The position numbers and the translations under genes were made by a program. DNA of 53,815 nucleotides from a virus, in IMG/VR virus record IMGVR_UViG_3300045988_111174, positions 1 through 53,815 of that record; one strand, given 5' to 3'. The notes under the pieces were generated by a model. That model did no database searches and was not told the DNA's origin. It saw only the letters and a list, made by a program, of their open reading frames with translations. Below are positions 6,475 through 32,574 of the stretch, one piece after another (position 1 is the stretch's first letter; each line of letters opens with the position of its first letter).

Positions 6475-6784
6475 CGTCATCCATCCTCTCTCCATTGCTG
6501 CAAAAATCCTCCGGCAGTACCACGCGCCCATGCAGCATGCACCAGCCGCAATCCTCCCGGTAGCCCTCCGGCAGCGGAGGCCGCATACCCATGCACACGC
6601 AGTCCTTGCACCTGACCACCTGCACCACGTCAGCGGCAGGGGTCTCGTCGATGATGTCCAGCACGTCGCGAATCACTACATCCGGGATTAGACCCACGAC
6701 AGAAATCGTAGAACACGACTTTGTTTTGTCGCAATACGCGCTTACAGCCGCTTTGAGCGCTTCAGCGTCAATGTATTTTGGCAT
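6467..6784 (-). CDS. Hypothetical protein
   Basis: 105-aa ORF with codon usage like its neighbours. Confidence 0.65.
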   Translation of the reverse strand: MPKYIDAEALKAAVSAYCDKTKSCSTISVVGLIPDVVIRDVLDIIDETPAADVVQVVRCKDCVCMGMRPPLPEGYREDCGWCMLHGRVVLPEDFCSNGERMDDDA

Positions 6785-7178
6785 CGTTCAGCGCCTCCTT
6801 CGGTTTGATCCCCAGCTTCTTCGCGATCTCCGGATCCATCTGCAGGGCTTTGCAACGGTCACAATCATGCTTTGCGCAGATAAAGATCGGGAAACAGCCC
6901 TCGTCAAAGTACTTCCGAGGACACGGAACCTCGCGTGCATTTGGAAACAGTTTCTTCCACGCCTCTTTCCAGTTTGGATACACCTGCTCGGGATGCTCTT
7001 CCGCCCATTTCAACACAATGTGCTCCGCGGTATCGTAGTAAAGATACTTTTCGCCGAGATCAAACCGGCATACCAACCCATCGTCATCATGCAGCGGGCA
7101 TCCATCACAATCGCCCGGATGTTCAAGACATATCCTCCGCGCCTGTTTCATGACATCAACAAACTGTGCCATTGTCAT
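6768..7178 (-). CDS. Hypothetical Cys-rich protein
   Basis: 136-aa ORF that overlaps the downstream start. Confidence 0.65.
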   Translation of the reverse strand: MTMAQFVDVMKQARRICLEHPGDCDGCPLHDDDGLVCRFDLGEKYLYYDTAEHIVLKWAEEHPEQVYPNWKEAWKKLFPNAREVPCPRKYFDEGCFPIFICAKHDCDRCKALQMDPEIAKKLGIKPKEALNDAKIH

Positions 7179-22293: not shown

Positions 22294-23031
22294 GTGGGAA
22301 AATGTGTAAAATGCGGGCGGCACGGGCTGTTTGTCCGCGTAAATGGCGATGGGCTGTGCGCAACGTGTCAGGGAATTAGTGATGCAATTGCCGCGGTCGC
22401 GAATGCAGTTACGGGAAGCCGTGGGAATTGTAAGCCTTCGAAACCGGAAAAAACGATCATTCCGAAGCGGAGCACGTATCTGAAAGATCGTAACGGAAAG
22501 CGTATTACGAAAAAAGATTACTCTATCATTTTCGACATGAGCGCCTTTTCAGAGCTAATAAACAACACGTACCAAATTGACGGGGAACACAATCGGAGCA
22601 TAATACAGCGCGATGCCGTCGAGATGGTAAAGCTGGCAAATGCACTTGAGGTAGATGCTTTTGACATTCCGCATGTCGAGGCGGATGGCCTATGGCTTGA
22701 TTTTAGTTATGTAGAGAGTAGAGGGCAATGTAAGACGACTGCTCAATTCGAGCCAAAATATAATGGTAAAATGCCAAATCCTTGCATGACTATTGGTTTT
22801 GCTTTTGACGAGGATTTGTTTGGCGTGCTGGAATATGATAAAAACGAGCTTTGCGGCGGAAAGGTAATAAAATGGTGCCGTACAAAAATAGAAGCTCCGG
22901 ATTATGTAAGGCTGGGAGGAACCTGCTGGGTTGCGCGCTTTATAAAGATTGGCGAAAACATGGAACTGTACGAAGCTATAAAGACGATTGACGGAAAACG
23001 TCAGGTTATTTACAGGCGCAGGAAAAAATGA
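22294..23031 (+). CDS. Orphan accessory protein (N-terminal zinc ribbon), visibly A/T-richer than the rest of the genome
   Basis: GTG start with GGGAGGA upstream. The N-terminus is MGKCVKCGRHGLFVRVNGDGLCATCQ. I recognise no family for the remainder. The gene lies between the repressor block and the integrase. Confidence 0.65.
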   Translation: MGKCVKCGRHGLFVRVNGDGLCATCQGISDAIAAVANAVTGSRGNCKPSKPEKTIIPKRSTYLKDRNGKRITKKDYSIIFDMSAFSELINNTYQIDGEHNRSIIQRDAVEMVKLANALEVDAFDIPHVEADGLWLDFSYVESRGQCKTTAQFEPKYNGKMPNPCMTIGFAFDEDLFGVLEYDKNELCGGKVIKWCRTKIEAPDYVRLGGTCWVARFIKIGENMELYEAIKTIDGKRQVIYRRRKK

Positions 23032-23053
23032 TACAACGATGAGGAGGGTGGAT

Positions 23054-24190
23054 ATGGCTGCAAGGAGAACCGCCGAAGCAATCTGGATCGAATCGAAGAA
23101 ATATTGGCAAATCAAGGTGCAGCGCAACGGCGTGCGCAAGGCGTTTACTTCCTCTATAAAAGGGCGAAAAGGGAAGCACGAGGCCGAAGCAAAGGCGGAC
23201 GAATGGCTGGACAGCGGAACCGAGGATATGCGCTTTGACGTTGCCGCAAAGATGTTTCTGGACGATATTCAGCGCAGGACCGGTCGGTCAAATTACGAGA
23301 ACAACGAGTGGGCGATGCGTCTTTACATCCTGCCGGAAATAAAGGCACGGAAACTATCTACAATTACTAAGGCGATGTGGCAATGCTGCATTCTGCGCGG
23401 CGCGGAGGCGGGCCTCTCAAGGCGGTCATGCTCAAACGTGCGCAGCACTATAATGGGCTTCATCAGTTTTGCAGAATCAAACAGATGGAAAATCGAAAAA
23501 CAGGACGCGAAAAAATTCACAATCCCGAACACTGCTGCCCCGAAGAAAGAGAAGATCATCTTGCAGCCGGCGGAGATTCACATGCTTTTTGAAAATGATA
23601 CTGTGACGAATCGCGGGAAGCCCGTCTTTACTCGCAATATTTACGCATGGCGTTTTTACGTTGTGACGGGTCTGCGGCGTGGCGAGCTTTGCGGGCTGAG
23701 AAAAGACGATCTTATCGGGAACGCGTTGATTATAAAACGGAATATAAATACCTATGGTCAGGAGACGTCTGGTAAAAACGACAACGCCCGGCGCGAAATA
23801 CTGCTGCCAGATGTAGCGATACAGGTTTTAAAAGATCAGAAAGAAATGCTGATGCGCGAAGGGGTTATTGCCTCAGAGTGGATTTTCCCGAACAAGTATG
23901 GAGAAAGGATGAATCCAAAGTACGTTTATACTACGTGGAAACGATTTGCGCTTCAGCACGGCATAAAATCATCCCTGCACGATCTGCGCCACACATTCAT
24001 CTCCGTAAACAAAAGCGACCTCCCGCTCGTGCTGATGAAATCCGTAATAGGGCATTCTAAGTCAATGGATACATACGGCGTTTACGGACATGATGTCGAA
24101 GGGGAAAAAGAGCGTGCTGCGCAGATCGTAGACGGCGTTTTTGCCAAAATTATAGGCGATGCGGGTGGAAAAGTGGGTGGAGATAAATAG
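23054..24190 (+). CDS. int: Tyrosine recombinase / phage integrase
   Basis: Start at ATG 23054 with GAGGAGGG upstream. Catalytic-region motifs are GLRRGELCGL, HDLRHTFIS and GHSKSMDTYGVYGH (R..HxxR..Y). Confidence 0.9.
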   Translation: MAARRTAEAIWIESKKYWQIKVQRNGVRKAFTSSIKGRKGKHEAEAKADEWLDSGTEDMRFDVAAKMFLDDIQRRTGRSNYENNEWAMRLYILPEIKARKLSTITKAMWQCCILRGAEAGLSRRSCSNVRSTIMGFISFAESNRWKIEKQDAKKFTIPNTAAPKKEKIILQPAEIHMLFENDTVTNRGKPVFTRNIYAWRFYVVTGLRRGELCGLRKDDLIGNALIIKRNINTYGQETSGKNDNARREILLPDVAIQVLKDQKEMLMREGVIASEWIFPNKYGERMNPKYVYTTWKRFALQHGIKSSLHDLRHTFISVNKSDLPLVLMKSVIGHSKSMDTYGVYGHDVEGEKERAAQIVDGVFAKIIGDAGGKVGGDK

Positions 24191-24397
24191 CAGAATCCGA
24201 CAAATCCGCTGCGCTGCAATGGTTTTAGAATTTTATATTCCTCGGCGGCGCTCCGGTCCATAATCAAAAATGCAGCCGGAGTAACTCCGGTATGGCCATG
24301 TTTTCTTCAGAAATTACGGATGCGCCGGAATTTGAACAAGTATATTCAGAACCCAAACGGGTGGAAAAATGGGTGGGGATTATGCCCCACCCATAAT
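24191..24397. other. Non-coding integrase-proximal region; probable attP
   Basis: It lies next to the int 3' end. It contains the perfect palindrome CCGGAGT-A-ACTCCGG (24276..24290). The minus strand at 24336..24317 reads TTCAAATTCCGGCGCATCCG, which resembles a tRNA T-loop plus 3' acceptor end. Confidence 0.4.
24364..24392 (-). terminator. Rho-independent terminator of the cargo operon
   Basis: On the minus strand, GGGTGGGG-cataat-CCCCACCC is followed by ATTTTTCC, 6 nt after the stop at 24398. Confidence 0.7.
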
Positions 24398-24718
24398 TCA
24401 TTTCCACCCATCGATCATCGCCTTGACCTCTGCGGTCTTGGCGATGAGGTCGTTGTGGATGGCTTCCCACGCTGCGATCATGCCGTCGGCGTAGGCGGGG
24501 TTGCGCTTGTACTCCTCGGAGGCCTTGTAACCCTCGATCAGCTTCTTCACCACGGCGTGGCCGTTGGTGTTGAAATTGATGTGAGCCGCGGCCATCTCGC
24601 GATACCACGCGGCGGCCTCGGGATGCTCCGCCTTTAGGTCGTAGGCCGTGCGGATTTTGCCGCGGGCCTCCTCGATGTTGCCGGCGATGTCGTTGCTCAG
24701 GCGCTTGATGATCTTCAT
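24398..24718 (-). CDS. Helical hypothetical protein (cargo island gene 5)
   Basis: The 106-aa ORF has GGAGG upstream and no recognised motif. Confidence 0.65.
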   Translation of the reverse strand: MKIIKRLSNDIAGNIEEARGKIRTAYDLKAEHPEAAAWYREMAAAHINFNTNGHAVVKKLIEGYKASEEYKRNPAYADGMIAAWEAIHNDLIAKTAEVKAMIDGWK

Positions 24719-24730
24719 ATCCGCGCCTCC

Positions 24731-25165
24731 TTAGGCCAGCTTGACCGCGCTGGCGCATACATGGCTGACCGTTCCGGCAACGCCGCTCAAGCGCGCGCTG
24801 ATGACGGGCTGGATCGCGCAGCAGGTGGCAAGCCGCACCACCGTCTCCACGTGCTGGGTGATTTCGCCTCCCGCCGCCACGGTATCCGTGGTAATCGCGC
24901 AGGGCATGGGCGTGGAGCCGTTGTAGAGCTGGAGCACCTGAGCGCCCGCCGCGCCGGGAGTGCTGGTCACGTCATAGCTGACGCGGAACAGGCCGCCGGC
25001 GTTGATGCGGAAGCCGCCGCTCTGGGTGGTGATGGAGCAGCCGGTGTCGGTGATCTGGGTGCCGAGCACGTTGATGGTCGTCCCATCGGCGGTGTAGGTC
25101 TGCAAAGCGGCGTTGTATGCGGCCTGCGCAGACTTCTGGTGGACGTTTTTGCAATTGCAGGACAT
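24731..25165 (-). CDS. Cys-capped beta-rich protein (BclA-C/C1q- or Ena-like jelly-roll suspected; cargo island gene 4)
   Basis: Start at ATG 25165 with AAGGAGA upstream. The N-terminus is MSCNCKN. The body is Gly/Thr/Val-rich and strand-like (GGFRINAGGLFRVSYDVTS..AQVLQLYNGSTPMPCAI). Cys residues occur near the C-terminus (LATCCAIQP, HVCAS). Confidence 0.35.
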   Translation of the reverse strand: MSCNCKNVHQKSAQAAYNAALQTYTADGTTINVLGTQITDTGCSITTQSGGFRINAGGLFRVSYDVTSTPGAAGAQVLQLYNGSTPMPCAITTDTVAAGGEITQHVETVVRLATCCAIQPVISARLSGVAGTVSHVCASAVKLA

Positions 25166-25251
25166 ATCGTTTCTCCTTTCCAATTCATAGCGCCCGCCCG
25201 GCGCATGGCTCGGACGGGCGCAGGCGCTGTTATAACGCGTATGTCAGTTGG

Positions 25252-25950
25252 TTACGCGACGTAACCGGCTCCGCAGTTTCCGCAGCCCTGCGCGGCGTAG
25301 GGGTTGTAGCCCGACTGATACGGGCTGCACGTCAGATACGCCGGCACAGGGGTCTTGTTGATGGCCGAGAGCAGCGTGTTGGTCTGCGACAGCGTGCCGA
25401 GCTGGAGCTGGGCCGCCTGCAGGTTGTCGCGCAGCTCCTGCATCGTGTTGGCGTTGATGAGCGCGCGGGTGGCCTCGCCCTCCGCGTGGATCGCCGTCTT
25501 CACATCGCAGCAACACTGCGCCTGCTGGGCCTGCATGGCCTGAGCCTGCAGGGCCGCGTCGTAGCGGTTCTGCATGATTTCCTTCTGGGTGGTGCAGCAG
25601 CACTGCTGGGCGGCAAACCGATTTTCCATGATCGACTTGTCGATGCCGGCCAAGCCGAGCTGGGTGTTGTAGCGATTCTCCAGCACGTCGCGCTGCACGC
25701 CAAACTGGTCACGCATCAGGCCGTTCTGGTTGCGGAGGATTTCGGCGGTGTTAAAACCGTCGGCCATCTCGCCGCGGGTGAGCGCACCCTGAAGGCCGGC
25801 ATTGCCGTTGCCCCACAGACCGCCACCCATCATTCCGAATACCAGGAAGAGCACGACGATCCAAAAGAAACCGCCGTCGCCGAAAAATCCGTCGCAGTTG
25901 CGATCCTTATTGGTCACGGCCGCGATGTCGGCAAGGGTCATATTGTCCAT
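25252..25950 (-). CDS. Membrane-anchored Cys-triplet repeat protein with YjcZ-like N-terminus (cargo island gene 3)
   Basis: The N-terminus is CDGFFGDGGFFWIVVLFLVFGMMGGGLWG. Internal repeats are VLENRYNTQ, IMENRFAAQQCCCTTQKE and IMQNRYDAALQ..AQQAQCCCDVKT. The C-terminus is GCGNCGAGYVA. Confidence 0.6.
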   Translation of the reverse strand: MDNMTLADIAAVTNKDRNCDGFFGDGGFFWIVVLFLVFGMMGGGLWGNGNAGLQGALTRGEMADGFNTAEILRNQNGLMRDQFGVQRDVLENRYNTQLGLAGIDKSIMENRFAAQQCCCTTQKEIMQNRYDAALQAQAMQAQQAQCCCDVKTAIHAEGEATRALINANTMQELRDNLQAAQLQLGTLSQTNTLLSAINKTPVPAYLTCSPYQSGYNPYAAQGCGNCGAGYVA

Positions 25951-26005
25951 TTAGGTCACTCCTTTTTGATATTTATCCTCAGCCCGTAGCGCTCCGGGCA
26001 AAGAA

Positions 26006-26224
26006 TCATCCCTTGAAAAATCCCTGCATCTGCTCGGCGATCTGCTTCGCCTGCTCAAGCTGCTGGGCGTTGATCTGGCCGCTTTGCAGCATCTCGTTGA
26101 TCTTCTGCTGGGCGGATTGCGGCGACCACATCTGTCGAAATTTCCGGAACTGCTGCAGCATCTGCATTCCCGGTATCTGGGCGTTGGCCTGTTTGGCCAT
26201 CATGCCGATGAGAGGGTTGCTCAC
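26006..26224 (-). CDS. Small Gln-rich helical protein (cargo island gene 2)
   Basis: The GTG at 26224 overlaps the upstream stop (GTGA), with GGGAGGGA upstream. The sequence reads ...MQMLQQFRKFRQMWSPQSAQQKINEMLQSGQINAQQLEQAKQIAEQMQGFF. Confidence 0.55.
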   Translation of the reverse strand: MSNPLIGMMAKQANAQIPGMQMLQQFRKFRQMWSPQSAQQKINEMLQSGQINAQQLEQAKQIAEQMQGFFKG

Positions 26225-26649
26225 AGGTTGATCCCTCCCAGCGCGTTTTCGAGCTGCGACAGCTTGTCCGACACAGCCTTGATCTCTTCCTTGGTGGCAA
26301 ACTGCGACACGTCGATCTGGGGCGCGGGCGCAGCCTGCGTCTGGGCCTGCGGGTCGATTTCCAGCAGCCGGAACGACTTGAGCGTCGCCGTTCCCATGCT
26401 GTCCACGGCCTTGACGTGGATGACCGGGTCGTTGTTGTCCATCATCCACGCCGTCTGTCCGGGCTGGACGATGTGGTCGCGCGCGCCCTGCACGCCGTTG
26501 ACGTAGATCCACGACACATTGCTCTGCGCGCCGCTGTTCTGCGGCGGCAGCTGTTGCGTCATCTGCATCATCTGGGGCTGAGGGGGCATGTAGTTGGCGT
26601 TGAAATATCCCGGCACAGCGGGCTGTGGGAATGGGTAGTTATAAGCCAT
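26221..26649 (-). CDS. Pro/Gln-rich N-terminus plus small beta domain protein (cargo island gene 1)
   Basis: ATG at 26649 with GAGGTG 6 nt upstream. Translation is MAYNYPFPQPAVPGYFNANYMPPQPQMMQMTQQLPPQNSG, then WIYVNGVQGARDHIVQPGQTAWMMDNNDPVIHVKAVDSMGTATLKSFRLLEI. Confidence 0.65.
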   Translation of the reverse strand: MAYNYPFPQPAVPGYFNANYMPPQPQMMQMTQQLPPQNSGAQSNVSWIYVNGVQGARDHIVQPGQTAWMMDNNDPVIHVKAVDSMGTATLKSFRLLEIDPQAQTQAAPAPQIDVSQFATKEEIKAVSDKLSQLENALGGINL

Positions 26650-26858
26650 GCGTTGCACCTCGCTTTCTGATGCTATTTTCGCATGGGCGGCGGTGGAGTG
26701 CGGGAAACTATGCGGGGTTTGTGGGAAAAATCAAAAACAAGTGAAGAAATTGAAGATACAACACAAGAAAGAACGTAAGACGTATCAAAAAAAGAGTGAA
26801 ATTTGAAGTATACTTACAGAAAATCCGGCCAAAAATGAAAATAACGCCCGTCATAGTA

Positions 26859-26887
26859 TTGACAAGGCGTTGATGTTGTGTTAATAT
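26859..26887 (+). promoter_or_regulatory. Near-consensus sigma-A-type promoter of the orphan small RNA
   Basis: TTGACA (26859..26864), a 17-nt spacer and TAATAT (26882..26887). Confidence 0.7.
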
Positions 26888-26893
26888 ATAGGT

Positions 26894-27052
26894 GTCGTCA
26901 GAGATGGCGGCTGTCAGGCTCGGAGCACCGAGCGTAATTGTCCTGATGCTGGGCACTGTGGATTAAAATAAAACGGTTGCTGCATTGGACACTGTTTGAG
27001 CGTTTACGTTCAGCAACAAAAATGGCGCCGAGATTCTCTCGGCGCCATTTTT
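26894..27052 (+). ncRNA. Stand-alone structured small RNA (about 160 nt), class unknown
   Basis: The promoter above and the intrinsic terminator at 27017..27053 bracket a segment with no plausible protein gene. Internal hairpins are GCUCGG-agca-CCGAGC (26918..26933) and GUUGCUG...CAGCAAC (26976..27017). The only ORF is a 20-codon MAAVRLGAPSVIVLMLGTVD (26904..26966). Confidence 0.55.
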
Positions 27053-27063: not shown

Positions 27064-27630
27064 TCAGCCCTTGAGGCTGTCGTCGATCGCTCTTTGCATC
27101 ATGGCGATTGCGTCCTCTCTGGAAACCGATCTCCAGCCCCAATAGTCATTGCCTCTGGTCATCTCGTCGTCATTGAGGACGAGATACCAGCCTCCGTTAT
27201 CATGCTCCCGGTATTCGGCTTCCAGTTCTTCAGCCGACGCGTCTTCGCCGAGGCTGCGCCAGTAAAAGTCCACTCTGTAATTGCTTCCCCTGCCGCGTGC
27301 CCAATCGAATGCTTTTTCCGCATCGTCAAACACGCCGCTGTCAAAGCACAGGCCTTCCCGGTTTATGAGGTCTACGATGATTTCGCCCTTCATGTTTTTG
27401 TCCTCCTTGTTTTTCCGGATCAGTTCGTCCACCGTGCAGTTCAACGCATCGGCCAGCCTGAGCAGGGAGCTGATGCGCGGGTCGCGCTTGCCCATCTCCC
27501 ACTTGGCGATCATCTGCTGGGTGCTGCCGATTGCCTCGGCGAGCTGTTGCTGGGTCATGCCCAGCGCGATTCGGCGCTGGGCGATGGGGCTGCTGCCCGT
27601 GTTGCTGTTAGGTCTTGGGTCAGTGCGCAT
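27064..27630 (-). CDS. XRE-family HTH protein with an unknown 110-aa C-terminal domain (last gene of the three-gene cassette)
   Basis: Start at ATG 27630 with AAGGAGGAG upstream. The HTH is RRIALGMTQQQLAEAIGSTQQMIAKWEMGKRDPRISSLLRLADALNCTVDELI. The C-terminal domain is Trp/Asp-rich. Confidence 0.75.
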   Translation of the reverse strand: MRTDPRPNSNTGSSPIAQRRIALGMTQQQLAEAIGSTQQMIAKWEMGKRDPRISSLLRLADALNCTVDELIRKNKEDKNMKGEIIVDLINREGLCFDSGVFDDAEKAFDWARGRGSNYRVDFYWRSLGEDASAEELEAEYREHDNGGWYLVLNDDEMTRGNDYWGWRSVSREDAIAMMQRAIDDSLKG

Positions 27631-27835
27631 CTCTTTTCTGCTCCTCCTTGCCGTCGGCGGACTTGCGCAACGATACGCAAAATGCCCAATCTTTCTTCGT
27701 CGGCTTATTTTCTGGATTGCAGTCTGCACAAATCCAGCTGCCTCTAGCAACGATCTCACCCTTGTACCAATACTCGTGGATCCCCGGGCATTGCTTGATG
27801 ATCTTGCCGTACTTGGACGTGTATGTGATCTTCAT
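27620..27835 (-). CDS. Hypothetical small protein
   Basis: 71-aa ORF with an 11-nt overlap onto the downstream start. Confidence 0.55.
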   Translation of the reverse strand: MKITYTSKYGKIIKQCPGIHEYWYKGEIVARGSWICADCNPENKPTKKDWAFCVSLRKSADGKEEQKRDAH

Positions 27836-27895: not shown

Positions 27896-28417
27896 TTATC
27901 TGTTGGCGATCTCCATCATCTTGGCGTAGCCCTCGGGATCGCTGACCTTATACTCTTCCACCCACCGATTAATTCGGTCGACGTACATCTGACCGCCGGA
28001 GATGGTGTTCTTCAGCTCGTCGCGATGGTCGATCCACCACTTGGCGCTGGGGTTTTCGGCGATGATCACGTCGAGCACCCGGATTGTATAAACCCTAAGG
28101 TCATCATAGGCTTTGTCGATGTATACGCGCTGGATCATCAGCGCGTACTTGGCGCGGATGTCCTTCGCCCAGGCGATCTGCTTTTCGCTGCCGGTGAGGT
28201 TGTCCGGCAACTCCACCGGCAGCGCCTTGACGGCCTCGGCCAGCTCGGCGGCTTCCGCTTCGCGGTGGGCCTGCGCGGCGCACTTGGGGCAGAGGGTGAT
28301 GTTTTCGCGCGCCCAAGCCTCGCTGCTGTCCGCGTCCCGGCGGTTGTAGCACTTCTTCCGCCACTCAAATTCGTTTTCACACGCCTTGCAGATGAGCTTC
28401 ACACTTGCCATTGCCAT
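27896..28417 (-). CDS. Hypothetical protein with an N-terminal zinc ribbon
   Basis: Start at ATG 28417 with GGAGGA upstream. The CKACENEF...CPKC pattern is followed by LTGSEKQIAWAKDIRAKY. Confidence 0.6.
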   Translation of the reverse strand: MAMASVKLICKACENEFEWRKKCYNRRDADSSEAWARENITLCPKCAAQAHREAEAAELAEAVKALPVELPDNLTGSEKQIAWAKDIRAKYALMIQRVYIDKAYDDLRVYTIRVLDVIIAENPSAKWWIDHRDELKNTISGGQMYVDRINRWVEEYKVSDPEGYAKMMEIANR

Positions 28418-28462
28418 TGTATTTCCTCCACTTTCTGCGGTTATGCCGCCGGTCGGTCTTGT

Positions 28463-28512
28463 CTCTCTCAACCTTGTGACTATATTATACATCCATTTGG
28501 ATGTATTGTCAA
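28463..28512 (-). promoter_or_regulatory. Consensus sigma-A-type promoter with a palindromic operator and the same initial transcribed motif as the 18.2-kb promoter
   Basis: On the minus strand, TTGACA (28512..28507) is followed by the 17-nt spacer atacatccaaatggatg, which contains CATCCA-AA-TGGATG. TATAAT (28489..28484) follows, then TCACAAGGTTGAGAGAG (28479..28463). Confidence 0.7.
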
Positions 28513-28558
28513 GCCTTTTTATAGGATTTCCCAAACTTTTTTTTGCAAAAAAGCCAAA

Positions 28559-28591
28559 AGAAAAAAGGCCGGCGGATTGCTCCACCGGCCT
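28559..28591 (-). terminator. Rho-independent terminator ending the late/lysis operon
   Basis: On the minus strand, AGGCCGGTGGA-gcaa-TCCGCCGGCCT (one mismatch) is followed by TTTTTTTC. Confidence 0.7.
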
Positions 28592-28597
28592 GAAAGC

Positions 28598-28846
28598 CTA
28601 CATACATTTGTCCACCGCCTGCATAACCAGCTCGATGCGCGGGACGATCTGCCCGCGCAGGCGCTTGGAAACGGCGCTCCTGTCCATGCCCACCGCCGCG
28701 GCGATGTCCGCATAGTCCATGCCCCAGACGAGGCGAGAGGCGGCGATATGCACATCTGACGGCGCGAGCCGCGCCTCGATGATGAGGCGCGACATCACCG
28801 ACGAGGTCACGCCGTCAAACTGCGGGTACTCGTCGTATCTCATCAT
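28598..28846 (-). CDS. Small sigma-70 region-4/LuxR-like HTH protein
   Basis: WGMDYADIAAAVGMDRSAVSKRLRGQIVPRIE. Confidence 0.5.
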   Translation of the reverse strand: MMRYDEYPQFDGVTSSVMSRLIIEARLAPSDVHIAASRLVWGMDYADIAAAVGMDRSAVSKRLRGQIVPRIELVMQAVDKCM

Positions 28847-30621: not shown

Positions 30622-30933
30622 TCATTTCGGCGTTCCCGCCGCAATCCAGCTTACCCGCGGCACGCGATCCGTCGTATCTCCGTTGTAGATGCGCACCGTA
30701 AATCCCGTGGCAGTCACCGTGCCCGTCACCGCCACTGCGCATCTGCCGAATGATCCCGCAGTCGATTCCGTTTCAAAGCCCACCACTACGATGGGCGCAG
30801 CGTAAAACGCCTTGGGGAACGTCACGCTTACGTCTTTATAGCCGCCATGCGATACGGTCGTCCCCGCTATACGCCCGCTCTGCACTCCCACGTCCGCCGG
30901 GAAATGGTTGTGCCCCGTGTTCCAGTTCGCCAT
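30622..30933 (-). CDS. H-type-lectin-like domain protein (tail-associated)
   Basis: VSVTFPKAFYAAPIVVVGFETE....VTATGFTVRIYNGD resembles the H_lectin pattern. Confidence 0.4.
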   Translation of the reverse strand: MANWNTGHNHFPADVGVQSGRIAGTTVSHGGYKDVSVTFPKAFYAAPIVVVGFETESTAGSFGRCAVAVTGTVTATGFTVRIYNGDTTDRVPRVSWIAAGTPK

Positions 30934-31094
30934 TACTCCACCCCCAGCGCGGTGCGGATGGCCTCAAGGTCGTCCGTGATCAGAACGGGATAGTCCGCCG
31001 CGATGTCCTCAAAGGATTCGCCGTTGCCGATGCGAATGCGGAACGCTCGCGCCATGATCCGCAGCTTCAGATTGTCCAGTGTCTTCATGCTCAT
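30933..31094 (-). CDS. Small hypothetical protein (53 aa)
   Basis: ATG at 31094 with GGAGGAGG upstream. The stop overlaps the next start (TAATG). The ORF is below the ORF-track cutoff. Confidence 0.5.
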   Translation of the reverse strand: MSMKTLDNLKLRIMARAFRIRIGNGESFEDIAADYPVLITDDLEAIRTALGVE

Positions 31095-31285
31095 TCACCT
31101 CCTCCGATTAGGTCTGCCATCATAAGGATAATATCGTCTGTTGTGCCCTCCAGCACGTCAAGGCGCTGCTCCGGCGTGGGGGGCGGGGTAGGAGTATTCG
31201 CCTGCATGGCTTCCAGCTCGGCGATTTCCTCCGGTGTCATGTCGCGATAGATCGTTTTGCCGTCTTTGTATTCTACTGCTTTCAT
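31091..31285 (-). CDS. Small hypothetical protein
   Basis: Start at ATG 31285 (MKAVEYKDGKTIY..). ATGA overlaps the downstream gene. Confidence 0.55.
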   Translation of the reverse strand: MKAVEYKDGKTIYRDMTPEEIAELEAMQANTPTPPPTPEQRLDVLEGTTDDIILMMADLIGGGE

Positions 31286-31305
31286 CGTTTCCCCACCTCT
31301 CTCAC

Positions 31306-32574
31306 TCACACTGCATAGACTTCAATCGTCGTGTTTTTTGGAAATTTCATTTGGTATGTCGTGAATTTCAAATACCTAAATCCAGTCGTTTCATCCATTG
31401 CATACTCCATGGGCATCGAATACTGCAATGGGGCAGTGGCCTCATTGCCAATGTAGGTAGCGGGAGCAAATATCGATATTGGCTTTAGCGCGGATGCGAT
31501 ACGTATATAATCTAGGTATTTTCTGTTGTTAATGGCACATCCAGACATATTGTAGTACGTGGTATTTGTGTTTGATACCGCTACGTAAGTATAGCCCGTC
31601 GAGATCGTTTCCGGAAATGTATAGTAGAAGCGACAGGTTTTACACTGCTTTCCCAGATCAACAATGAGGACGTTGGTTTCTTCTTCCGTTACAAGCGTCG
31701 TGATATGATTCATCTCCGCAAACCCGGCGATCCCCATCCTCTCCCGTGCCGCCTTCTGCTCAGCACTCGTCCACGCCGCGCCGGTCGTCATGCCGGTCTT
31801 GGTGATCGACTGCCTGTCCGCGTCGGTCAGAGCGTCTTGCTTTGCAGCCAGAGCAGACGGTGTTACCGGCGCATACCCCAGCGCCGTTTCAATATTTGCA
31901 GCCGTGACATTTGCATCGCTGCCCGGCTCGCCCTTCGGGCCTTGCTCACCCTGCGGCCCCTGCGCTCCGGTTTCTCCCTTTTCTCCGGGATCACCTTTAG
32001 GGCCTTGTGTTCCCGGATCACCTTTGTCACCCTTCGCACCGGCGGCTCCGTCCTTACCATCCGTACCGTCCTTGCCCGGCTTGCCCTCCGGGATGCCAAA
32101 GTGCATCGTCCCCGTCTTGCCGTCGTACTCCGCCGTAGCAGGCTCACCATATGCAACGCTCTCGGCCTCAGCCTTCATATTCTGCGCGTTCCCGATGGCA
32201 TTGGTGATCTTGTCCACCCAGTCCATGCCCGGCTCCGGCGCTTCCGTTTCCTGTCCCGTCAGGCTCTTGTCCACCATTGTAGAGAGTATCTTGGACTTGG
32301 CCAGCACTCCGTTCACGGTCACGCGCACCTCTGCCTCACCGCTCCCAGCAATAGCCGTGTCCGCGCTGGTAGGCTGCCAGACGAGACATCCGTCCCGCAG
32401 CTCCGCCGCCACGGGGTAGATGCCGCTCTCGCCATGTCTCCGGTGCAGCAGCGTCACCACCGCACCGGGGTACTCCACTAGATATTCAGATACATCAATT
32501 TCGACCGTCCGCGCGAGATTCTCTCCACATCTGCCGAGCAGTATGTATCCGCCCTTGGTCACATCATATTTCAC
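31306..32574 (-). CDS. Tail fibre / receptor-binding protein with collagen-like Gly-X-Y repeats
   Basis: The BppU-like N-terminus is followed by [55 protein letters not shown]. The C-terminal about 130 aa are encoded by conspicuously A/T-rich DNA. Confidence 0.8.

Follow-up and report, generated by a model that had tools for sequence, protein, structure and literature searches.

Five co-oriented genes on the minus strand of the virus record IMGVR_UViG_3300045988_111174 (53,815 nucleotides (nt), analysed at full length and hereafter called the window), located at positions 24398-26658 with short gaps or overlaps between them, represent one copy of a conserved, mobile phage cassette, which we interpret, with moderate confidence, as an accessory operon that would build a membrane-anchored, Cys-rich assembly in the host cytoplasm. 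In the order of transcription, these genes encode the proteins p145, p72, p232, p144 and p106 (Table 1). The cassette behaves like a moron, i.e., an additional, self-contained gene unit that has transcription signals of its own, and not like a virion or replication module: it is followed by a terminator and preceded by upstream signals (hairpins in 18 of 31 loci and a predicted -10-type box), occupies three different genomic contexts and is flanked by different lysogeny modules in close relatives. The mobility of the cassette between unrelated phages and positions, its terminator-like boundaries and the fact that p144 and p106 can be replaced disfavor an essential role in the virion or in replication. 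The cassette is found in temperate phages, in plasmid-type prophages and in phages with no annotated integrase, and its role is therefore expected to be useful both in lysogeny and in lytic growth.

A first-pass annotation of this DNA had described a self-contained minus-strand unit of five genes with its own terminator that encodes Gln-rich and Cys-rich proteins, and this description stands: all five open reading frames (ORFs) and the hairpin with its T-run were found. The remarks on individual products are borne out as well, namely the Pro/Gln-rich N-terminus and small beta domain of p145 (on which composition and family alignment agree), the Gln richness of p72 (computed at 23.6% Gln, with 11% Met) and the MSCNC start of p144. 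The view that phage motifs are lacking has to be revised given that PHROGs contains matches to three of the five products, all of them in phage families without an assigned function, namely p232 (phrog_16490, E 3.5e-17), p72 (phrog_22984, E 2.2e-10) and p145 (phrog_21718, E 4.8e-13). The NCBIfam profile search produced no match for the five products (E<=1), and the sole signal in the Pfam search was a sub-threshold match of p144 to BclA_C. The PADLOC defense models gave noise-level scores only (at most 17.8 bits) against the five window proteins and the components of variant cassettes. No cassette product matched a known defense or structural family in PHROGs and PADLOC, and PHROGs classes no member as structural. 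Signal peptides are not visible in the translations of the soluble cassette products.

Conservation and gene order of the cassette

All ORFs of 37 independent loci were clustered, and the order P145/c16 - c2 - P232 - (P144 or c5) - variable helical proteins was found to be syntenic in 36 of the 37; in the exceptional locus, L032, the P232 gene is present as fragments only. The array is often headed, directly upstream, by a small gene for a sigma-70-region-4-like helix-turn-helix (HTH) protein (c9, c24 or c56; 14 of the 37 loci). The c56 protein matches the Pfam family Sigma70_r4_2 with 38.9 bits, which is above the cut-off, and shows a weak likeness to the antiterminator Q. The subsequent positions are taken by P145 (or c16, a variant of it), c2 (Met/Gln-rich, 55-96 amino acids), P232, one of two unrelated proteins (the TNF-like P144 or the Cys-capped beta protein c5), sometimes a helical protein of 70 amino acids (c4) and, in the last slot, a ferritin-like protein together with c13, a DUF7841 protein or P106. 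The closest lineage (L004, L005 and L038-L045) was the only one in which p106 homologs were detected, and the two other combinations replace it elsewhere. The ferritin-like family, c7 (4604-5194 in L001, 9366-9956 in L007, 9378-9968 in L012 and others), consists of four-helix proteins that, in the comparison with solved structures, have ferritins as their best matches without exception (E 2.4e-4); the conserved residues are His31, His50, Glu119 and Glu155, unlike the classical E/ExxH pattern.

The cassette is widespread among phages. The G+C content of the cassette loci ranges from 26% to 63%, and the p232 family includes 4,380 clusters at 90% identity and, in an exhaustive HMMER search, at least 1,319 clusters at 50% identity, which places the cassette among the larger conserved gene blocks of unknown function in gut Firmicutes phages. 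A scan of 185,579 species genomes yielded 33 loci, all in the syntenic phage context, and the universal trio of P145, c2 and P232 was seen solely in this context. The tblastn homologs include the Clostridium perfringens phages HMD-PC1, 17DYC, PMQ04, CPD1, XP41-N3 and CPQ4 as well as Dulem viruses 36 and 39 and faecal 'Bacteriophage sp.' records. The literature search aimed at such a module returned no description of the cassette, nor of DUF7841. Thus, the cassette appears to be common yet undescribed in the literature searched, with a protein set that seems unusual for a phage accessory or moron unit; the previous characterization of the module as unusual and undescribed on a phage remains accurate in its second part but not in the first because the cassette is very common in phages.

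The first protein, p145 (12% Gln and 10% Pro; 140 homologs found), consists, according to the family alignment, of a Q/N/P-rich low-complexity N-terminus, a conserved beta domain of about 60 amino acids and a C-terminal coiled coil. The ATG at 26649 is favored as the start because the close homologs, which begin with MAYNYPF, are 142 amino acids long and a GAGGTG ribosome-binding site precedes this codon. The family profile of p145 showed no significant match to solved structures; a GAF-domain fragment that was considered as a relative (E 0.02 only) was rejected as evidence. The second protein, p72, belongs, with a divergent sequence, to the c2 family, which occupies this position in nearly all cassettes; the homology is indicated by this position, by the common motifs NPL, SPQ and GxxxxQL in the alignment and by a 10-residue BLASTP match. 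The hidden Markov model of the c2 family alone does not reach p72.

The core protein p232

The layout of p232 includes an acidic N-terminal tail of 25 amino acids, a short hydrophobic anchor with flanking Gly (residues 27-41), a helix that extends over about 128 residues and contains the repeats and Cys triplets described below and, at the end, a conserved tail with Pro, Tyr and Cys. The motifs pointed out previously, namely GDGGFFWIVVLFLVFGMMGGG, (E/Q)NR(Y/F), two CCC triplets and the CGNCG tail, are all present, and the (E/Q)NR(Y/F) motifs belong to three 18-residue repeats (VLENRYNTQLGLAGIDKS, IMENRFAAQQCCCTTQKE and IMQNRYDAALQAQAMQAQ), with a self-similarity peak at offset 18 (1.17 vs. a background of about -0.7). 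Two length classes exist in the family, of about 207-214 and about 228-236 amino acids, i.e., one 18-residue repeat apart, so that the length of the predicted rod would change in steps of five helical turns. Cys119, Cys148, Cys208 and Cys226 are kept even in the most distant members. No domain fusions were detected among the 150 best representatives, all of which are 90-305 amino acids long.

Across 155 members of the family, the N-terminal tail is acidic (on average, 4.5 Asp/Glu vs. 1.5 Lys/Arg) and is followed by a Gly-flanked hydrophobic core of 11-13 residues with an uncharged C-terminal flank; from these features, we infer that p232 is probably an N-out/C-in membrane anchor. The AlphaFold2 model of p232 has a predicted local distance difference test score (pLDDT) of 54 and a predicted template modeling score (pTM) of 0.16 and is informative for secondary structure only, where it consistently shows a helix over residues 27-41, a long helix over residues 68-195 and a disordered tail. 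Candidate matches of the p232 profile to sequences of solved structures, namely Vipp1 and syntaxin (E 0.3-0.5), were rejected as non-significant.

The jelly-roll protein p144

The p144 protein is a stand-alone TNF/C1q-like jelly roll that is preceded by a flexible 10-residue peptide containing Cys3 and Cys5. The AlphaFold2 model (a monomer, with 24 homologs in the input) is all-beta, with a pLDDT of 92.5 and a pTM of 0.85, and Foldseek assigns a probability of 1.0 to the matches with BxpB, ExsFA, the BclA C-terminal domain, C1q and TNF, i.e., proteins of the ten-stranded TNF-like fold, so that the assignment of the modeled structure to this fold is solid. Accordingly, the proposal of a BclA_C/C1q-like jelly roll in the first-pass annotation is confirmed by structure prediction and comparison, the Pfam match being sub-threshold. 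The top matches are BxpB (8d02), ExsF (9h3d) and ExsFA (7r1m and 7r5i), with E of about 1e-7 and query-normalized template modeling scores (TM-scores) of 0.72-0.74 for the best chains and E 2e-6 and 0.67, respectively, for other chains. The BclA C-terminal domain gives TM-scores of 0.64-0.66, and the further matches include C1QL2 (0.73), EDA (0.75), cyanophage fiber domains and PRD1 P5. In these comparisons of the model, the exosporium proteins appear to be preferred over other TNF-like proteins, and the preference is slight because C1q, TNF and phage fiber domains score nearly as well. In BFVD, the viral models closest to p144 are automatically named 'BclA protein', and many fiber proteins are among the matches.

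At the sequence level, p144 scores 21.5 bits (E 2.2e-4) against the Pfam family BclA_C (PF18573), the curated cut-off of 38 bits not being reached, whereas a relative of p144 scores 27.2 bits and some homologs carry a precomputed PF18573 hit. The p144 profile compared with sequences of solved structures gave E 0.19 for ExsFA/BxpB/ExsF. The identity of p144 to these proteins is only 15-16%. Like these basal-layer proteins of the Bacillus cereus group exosporium, p144 is a stand-alone jelly roll of similar size that lacks a signal peptide and has a short flexible N-terminal extension (best Foldseek match E 1.2e-7), but unlike them, it is phage-encoded, has low sequence identity to them and is not accompanied in the cassette by an ExsY/CotY or BclA-type partner. 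With the BclA C-terminal domain, p144 shares the fold and the weak profile match but neither the collagen-like GXX region nor the N-terminal region for targeting and attachment to the exosporium (144 amino acids, no Pfam Collagen match).

Transcription signals

Alignment with relatives identified a -10-type box, TGCGAAAAT, upstream of the first gene that is kept as GCGATAAT or GCGAAAAT in relatives; in the lineage of the window, it is of the TGn-GATAAT type, GCGA(T/A)AAT, and is followed by a ribosome-binding site. Further upstream, a block with the pattern TTTCCCACAAA..CCGCAT(A/G)..TTCCCGC is kept in the window, L004, L041 and L038. Together, the box and the block resemble an extended -10 promoter of the sigma-A type that is accompanied by a regulator site, and not a SigE, SigK, SigF or SigG promoter. 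Inspection by eye of the conserved block for a SigE/SigK-type -10 element (CATA...) revealed only a partial, poorly conserved CAT(A/G), and a sigma-A scan upstream of the cassette gave two weak 9/12 matches at 26884-26838. Thus, neither the previously reported lack of a sigma-A promoter nor the suggested sporulation-sigma promoter agrees with the conserved box, which resembles a sigma-A -10 element. The small RNA that had been placed upstream of the cassette received no support either: neither Rfam nor the tRNA scan, both applied to the whole window, produced a match. The non-coding spacer upstream of the cassette (26650-27015, about 350 nt) is A+T-rich and contains, on the plus strand, a promoter-like site at 26859-26887 (10/12 with TG) that is directed away from the cassette.

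A hairpin with a T-run within 160 nt upstream of the first cassette gene is found in 18 of 31 loci compared to 16 of 261 (6%) other conserved genes, and most of these 16 cases are located between P232 and P144/c5. In many loci, the T-run is directly followed by TGn and (T/C/G/A)A(T/A)AAT. In 11 of 32 loci (L001-L036), a terminator-like hairpin is also present inside the cassette, immediately behind the P232 gene, which suggests that the downstream genes might be expressed at a lower level. In the window, a G+C-rich inverted repeat without a T-run is located between the P232 and P144 genes (about 25190-25225).

Genomic positions and hosts

The cassette follows the lysis genes in the window, L004, L005, L013, L014 and L028, with the order endolysin - holin - cassette kept in the close relatives of the window. 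In L001, L006, L007, L010 and L012, it is located between the portal/gp7-like and the scaffold/major capsid genes, and in L030, directly upstream of the scaffold gene. The third position was seen in phiCP13O-like C. perfringens phages, in the early region of which the cassette is located between the antirepressor and Gam/recombinase genes and downstream of the lysis genes. In one of these phages, 17DYC, no integrase is annotated in nt 1-27545 of 39,184, nor among the genes examined in the cassette-bearing remainder, and relatives of the phiCP13O-like phages came from screens for virulent phages. In the head clusters of L001 (at 1351-1988), L007 (at 6601-7163), L010 and L012, the cassette is preceded by genes for an XhlA-like anchored coiled coil (c17) and the HTH protein c9, both of which apparently move together with it. 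The relatives L041, L042/L043 and L044/L045 share with the window the cassette and a late region that is almost the same but differ in the maintenance module, which is a serine recombinase, ParA with Rep3 (a plasmid-type prophage) or a tyrosine integrase.

In L038-L040, the phage DNA ends with the cassette, at the prophage edge, and bacterial genes (Lactamase_B, queA, ruvB, murJ and lexA) come next, which confirms the attachment site (att)-proximal position noted previously; likewise, the cargo-like unit set apart from the lysis genes is indeed located between those genes and the integrase/att region. A direct repeat of 23 nt, CGGGTGGAAAA(G/A)TGGGTGG(A/G)GAT, is present at 24162-24184 and 24358-24380 in copies that are 91% identical (by chance, no such repeat is expected); the 3' end of the integrase gene contains one copy, and the other overlaps the cassette terminator. 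The same 23-nt motif is found at the prophage-host junction of L038. This repeat is a candidate att core or integrase arm site.

The hosts indicated by contigs of sufficient length to include host DNA are all Firmicutes, namely Coprococcus comes (an isolate), Oscillospiraceae, Anaerofustis, Lachnospiraceae, Faecalibacillus and Clostridia. The unexpected bin labels (Bacteroidales, Gastranaerophilales, Treponema and Rickettsiales) all come from phage-sized contigs and might be binning errors. The host of the window phage is possibly a member of the Oscillospiraceae or Ca. Faecivicinus, judging only from related metagenome-assembled genomes.

A possible membrane-anchored assembly

In the interpretation we favor, p232 would insert into the cytoplasmic membrane via its short Gly-flanked hydrophobic segment, with the acidic N-terminal tail outside and the helical rod and Cys-rich tail, probably oligomeric, in the cytoplasm. 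The other products would assemble on this rod in the cytoplasm because none of them has a signal peptide. The p144 protein would be a TNF-like docking head, presumably trimeric, the N-terminal Cys peptide of which could be joined to the Cys triplets and tail of p232 by disulfides or a metal, whereas p145, with its prion-like Q/N/P region, beta domain and coiled coil, and the Met/Gln-rich p72 might be matrix or adaptor proteins, and p106 a lineage-specific accessory. The result would be a membrane-anchored proteinaceous layer or set of fibers in infected or lysogenic cells. Our guess for the most likely role is that the cassette changes the envelope or membrane of the host to the advantage of the phage, for example by keeping out superinfecting phages, in lysogeny as well as in lytic growth and not specifically in spores. 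The architecture, a Cys-triplet rod built of 18-residue repeats and combined with a TNF-like head, is unusual and deserves biochemical study.

Exclusion of superinfecting phages in particular, taken by itself, has a fairly low probability. Membrane-anchored superinfection-exclusion proteins include lactococcal Sie2009, Ltp of Streptococcus thermophilus and Imm/Sp of T4. Like these, the cassette involves a small anchored phage protein that could be made apart from the late operon and occurs in temperate and virulent phages; unlike them, it is a multi-component system with a TNF-like partner, has no PADLOC match and shows no sequence or structural relation to them. In its own terminator, predicted promoter, location at the att end and variable presence, the cassette resembles the morons located between lysis genes and int-attP of phages but differs from them in having 5-8 genes and in occurring also inside head operons and in phages without an annotated integrase. 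Its function can be directly tested because the cassette is present in the cultured C. perfringens phages 17DYC, HMD-PC1, PMQ04, CPD1 and XP41-N3. If the envelope or exclusion role is correct, it bears on phage therapy against C. perfringens and on the dynamics of gut phages and their hosts.

Several observations weigh against the membrane-anchored accessory operon. The promoter and the membrane topology are predictions, the model of p232 is of low confidence, and its hydrophobic core is short for a transmembrane helix. The upstream hairpin could be read through in late transcription, so that autonomous expression is a prediction as well, and the location of the cassette inside the head-gene cluster in six loci would fit a virion-related role too. 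The best solved matches of p144 are exosporium proteins, a point in favor of the rival spore interpretation. Finally, known superinfection-exclusion systems usually consist of one or two genes compared to the 5-8 genes of the cassette, and there is no homology link between them.

Alternative interpretations

One alternative, the idea of the first-pass annotation, is a role in remodeling of the spore surface or envelope, whereby the products would be made in the mother cell of a sporulating lysogen and placed on the forespore outer membrane, altering the coat, exosporium or appendages. We consider this role quite improbable. BxpB, ExsF, ExsFA and the BclA C-terminal domain are the top solved matches of p144, and the weak BclA_C profile match points in the same direction, but C1q, TNF and phage fiber domains fit almost equally well (C1QL2/EDA TM-score 0.73-0.75), and the TNF-like fold is generic among phage fiber proteins. 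Coat and exosporium proteins lack signal peptides, as the cassette products do, and the ferritin-like fold seen in variant cassettes occurs among coat proteins too; the conserved Cys residues of p232 and p144 and the Gln richness are in line with such a role as well. The reliable hosts are Clostridia and their relatives, including C. perfringens; some loci, however, come from bins of non-sporulating lineages (Solobacterium and Gastranaerophilales), for which the binning is unreliable. The universal trio matches no spore family and is confined to the syntenic phage context, the promoter-like box resembles a sigma-A -10 element, six loci have the cassette inside head-gene clusters, and the phiCP13O-like phages that carry it have no integrase annotated in the part examined and have relatives from virulent-phage screens. 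The spore-surface module proposed in the first-pass annotation thus survives in the ExsF/BxpB-like p144 and in the Gln and Cys richness but not in its links to YjcZ, GerQ, Ena and CdeC or in the sporulation promoter. Neither p145 nor p72 matches Spore_GerQ in Pfam at E<=1, and the p145 profile found no significant structure. The p232 protein has no match in Pfam or NCBIfam at E<=1, which removes the proposed relation to CdeC/CdeM and leaves a likeness to YjcZ peptides that is compositional only, consisting in the Gly-flanked hydrophobic stretch, whereas p232 is 232 amino acids long with a 128-residue helical rod. The resemblance of p144 to Ena (DUF3992), a Cys-bearing N-terminal peptide on a beta-rich body, is similarly superficial, with no Pfam match and no Ena among the top 50 Foldseek matches. 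A portable exosporium-like kit in which a p232 rod would carry an ExsF/BxpB-type p144 trimer in a Gln-rich matrix and so build or modify a proteinaceous layer on the host spore or cell is likewise hardly probable. If real, the kit would be the first case of a phage that encodes a morphogenetic module for the coat or exosporium. A spore role in general would be new, given that genes for the coat or exosporium are absent from the list in a survey of gut-phage sporulation genes, and the sporulation genes known on phages, which are regulatory and enzymatic, would be joined by structural ones.

A virion-associated module, in which p144 would be a trimeric head decoration or fiber tip and the other products would be assembly or attachment factors made late with the capsid genes, also appears rather improbable. 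The cassette is located among head genes in L001, L006, L007, L010, L012 and L030, TNF-like domains are common in phage fibers (with the cyanophage fiber, PRD1 P5 and BFVD fiber matches of p144 as cases in point), and the window phage itself has a collagen-repeat fiber gene. However, the same cassette moves between unrelated phages and three positions, one of them an early region, and is set apart by terminator-like hairpins; p144 can be replaced by an unrelated protein, the membrane-anchor-like segment of p232 is unexpected in a tailed-phage particle, and no member is classed as structural in PHROGs. The adjacency of holin or XhlA-like genes in about 10 loci, and the XhlA-like c17 and sigma-region-4-like c9 that accompany the cassette even in head clusters, bring to mind clostridial toxin and bacteriocin loci, which combine a sigma-like regulator, a holin-like protein and a cargo without a signal peptide; by analogy, the products would be exported through the holin and act outside the cell or on its surface. 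This is a very unlikely scenario, as the XhlA matches, at E 0.002-0.06, are weak and do not reach the curated cut-off, the vicinity of lysis genes is the usual position of accessory genes anyway, and no toxin-like or bacteriocin-like domain was found in Pfam and NCBIfam.

Neighboring genes and additional features of the window

Table 1. Features of the five-gene cassette and its surroundings in the window
Feature	Position	Strand	Description
Tyrosine integrase	22988-24190	+	convergent, beyond the cassette end
Intrinsic terminator closing the cassette	24394-24362	-	hairpin 24394-24369 with a 10-bp G+C-rich stem ATGGGTGGGG/CCCCACCCAT, then TTTTT
p106	24718-24398	-	helical accessory protein, last gene; variable slot
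p144	25165-24731	-	MSCNC start; GGAGA ribosome-binding site
p232	25950-25252	-	universal core protein of the cassette
p72	26224-26006	-	72 amino acids, Met/Gln-rich helical; GTG start overlaps the p145 stop as GTGA
p145/p142	26658 or 26649-26221	-	first cassette gene; 145 amino acids from GTG 26658, 142 amino acids from ATG 26649
Candidate extended -10 element TGCGAAAAT	26683-26675	-	26 nt upstream of ATG; predicted from alignment with relatives
Upstream block TTTCCCACAAACCCCGCATAGTTTCCCGCAC	26728-26698	-	two TTYCCC half-sites with a spacing of about 21 nt; candidate site for binding of a regulator
c24, small sigma-70-region-4-like HTH gene	28598-28846	-	second cassette inserted between c24 and the five genes

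The genes that precede the cassette in the minus-strand order encode a collagen-repeat fiber protein, an H-lectin/gp53-like protein, an endolysin with ELLD, PG_binding_1 and SH3_3 domains, an XhlA-like protein, an LL-H holin and the HTH protein (28846-28598). They are followed by a separate two-gene cassette with a terminator of its own, the A+T-rich spacer of about 350 nt and the five genes. In the megablast comparison of the structural half of the window with the GenBank phage collection, no match was found. The fiber region (30622-32574, minus strand) consists of the 422-amino-acid collagen-repeat protein and a small protein with an H-type lectin/gp53-like C-terminal domain. The two-gene cassette encodes a Zn-ribbon-like protein of 229 amino acids (ORF 27896-28585) and an XRE-type HTH protein of 231 amino acids (27064-27759), and its terminator is located at 27046-27018. 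On the same strand, a perfect sigma-70 consensus, TTGACA-17-TATAAT (28512-28484), comes immediately after a strong terminator (28591-28566), and this promoter would drive the Zn-ribbon/XRE cassette.

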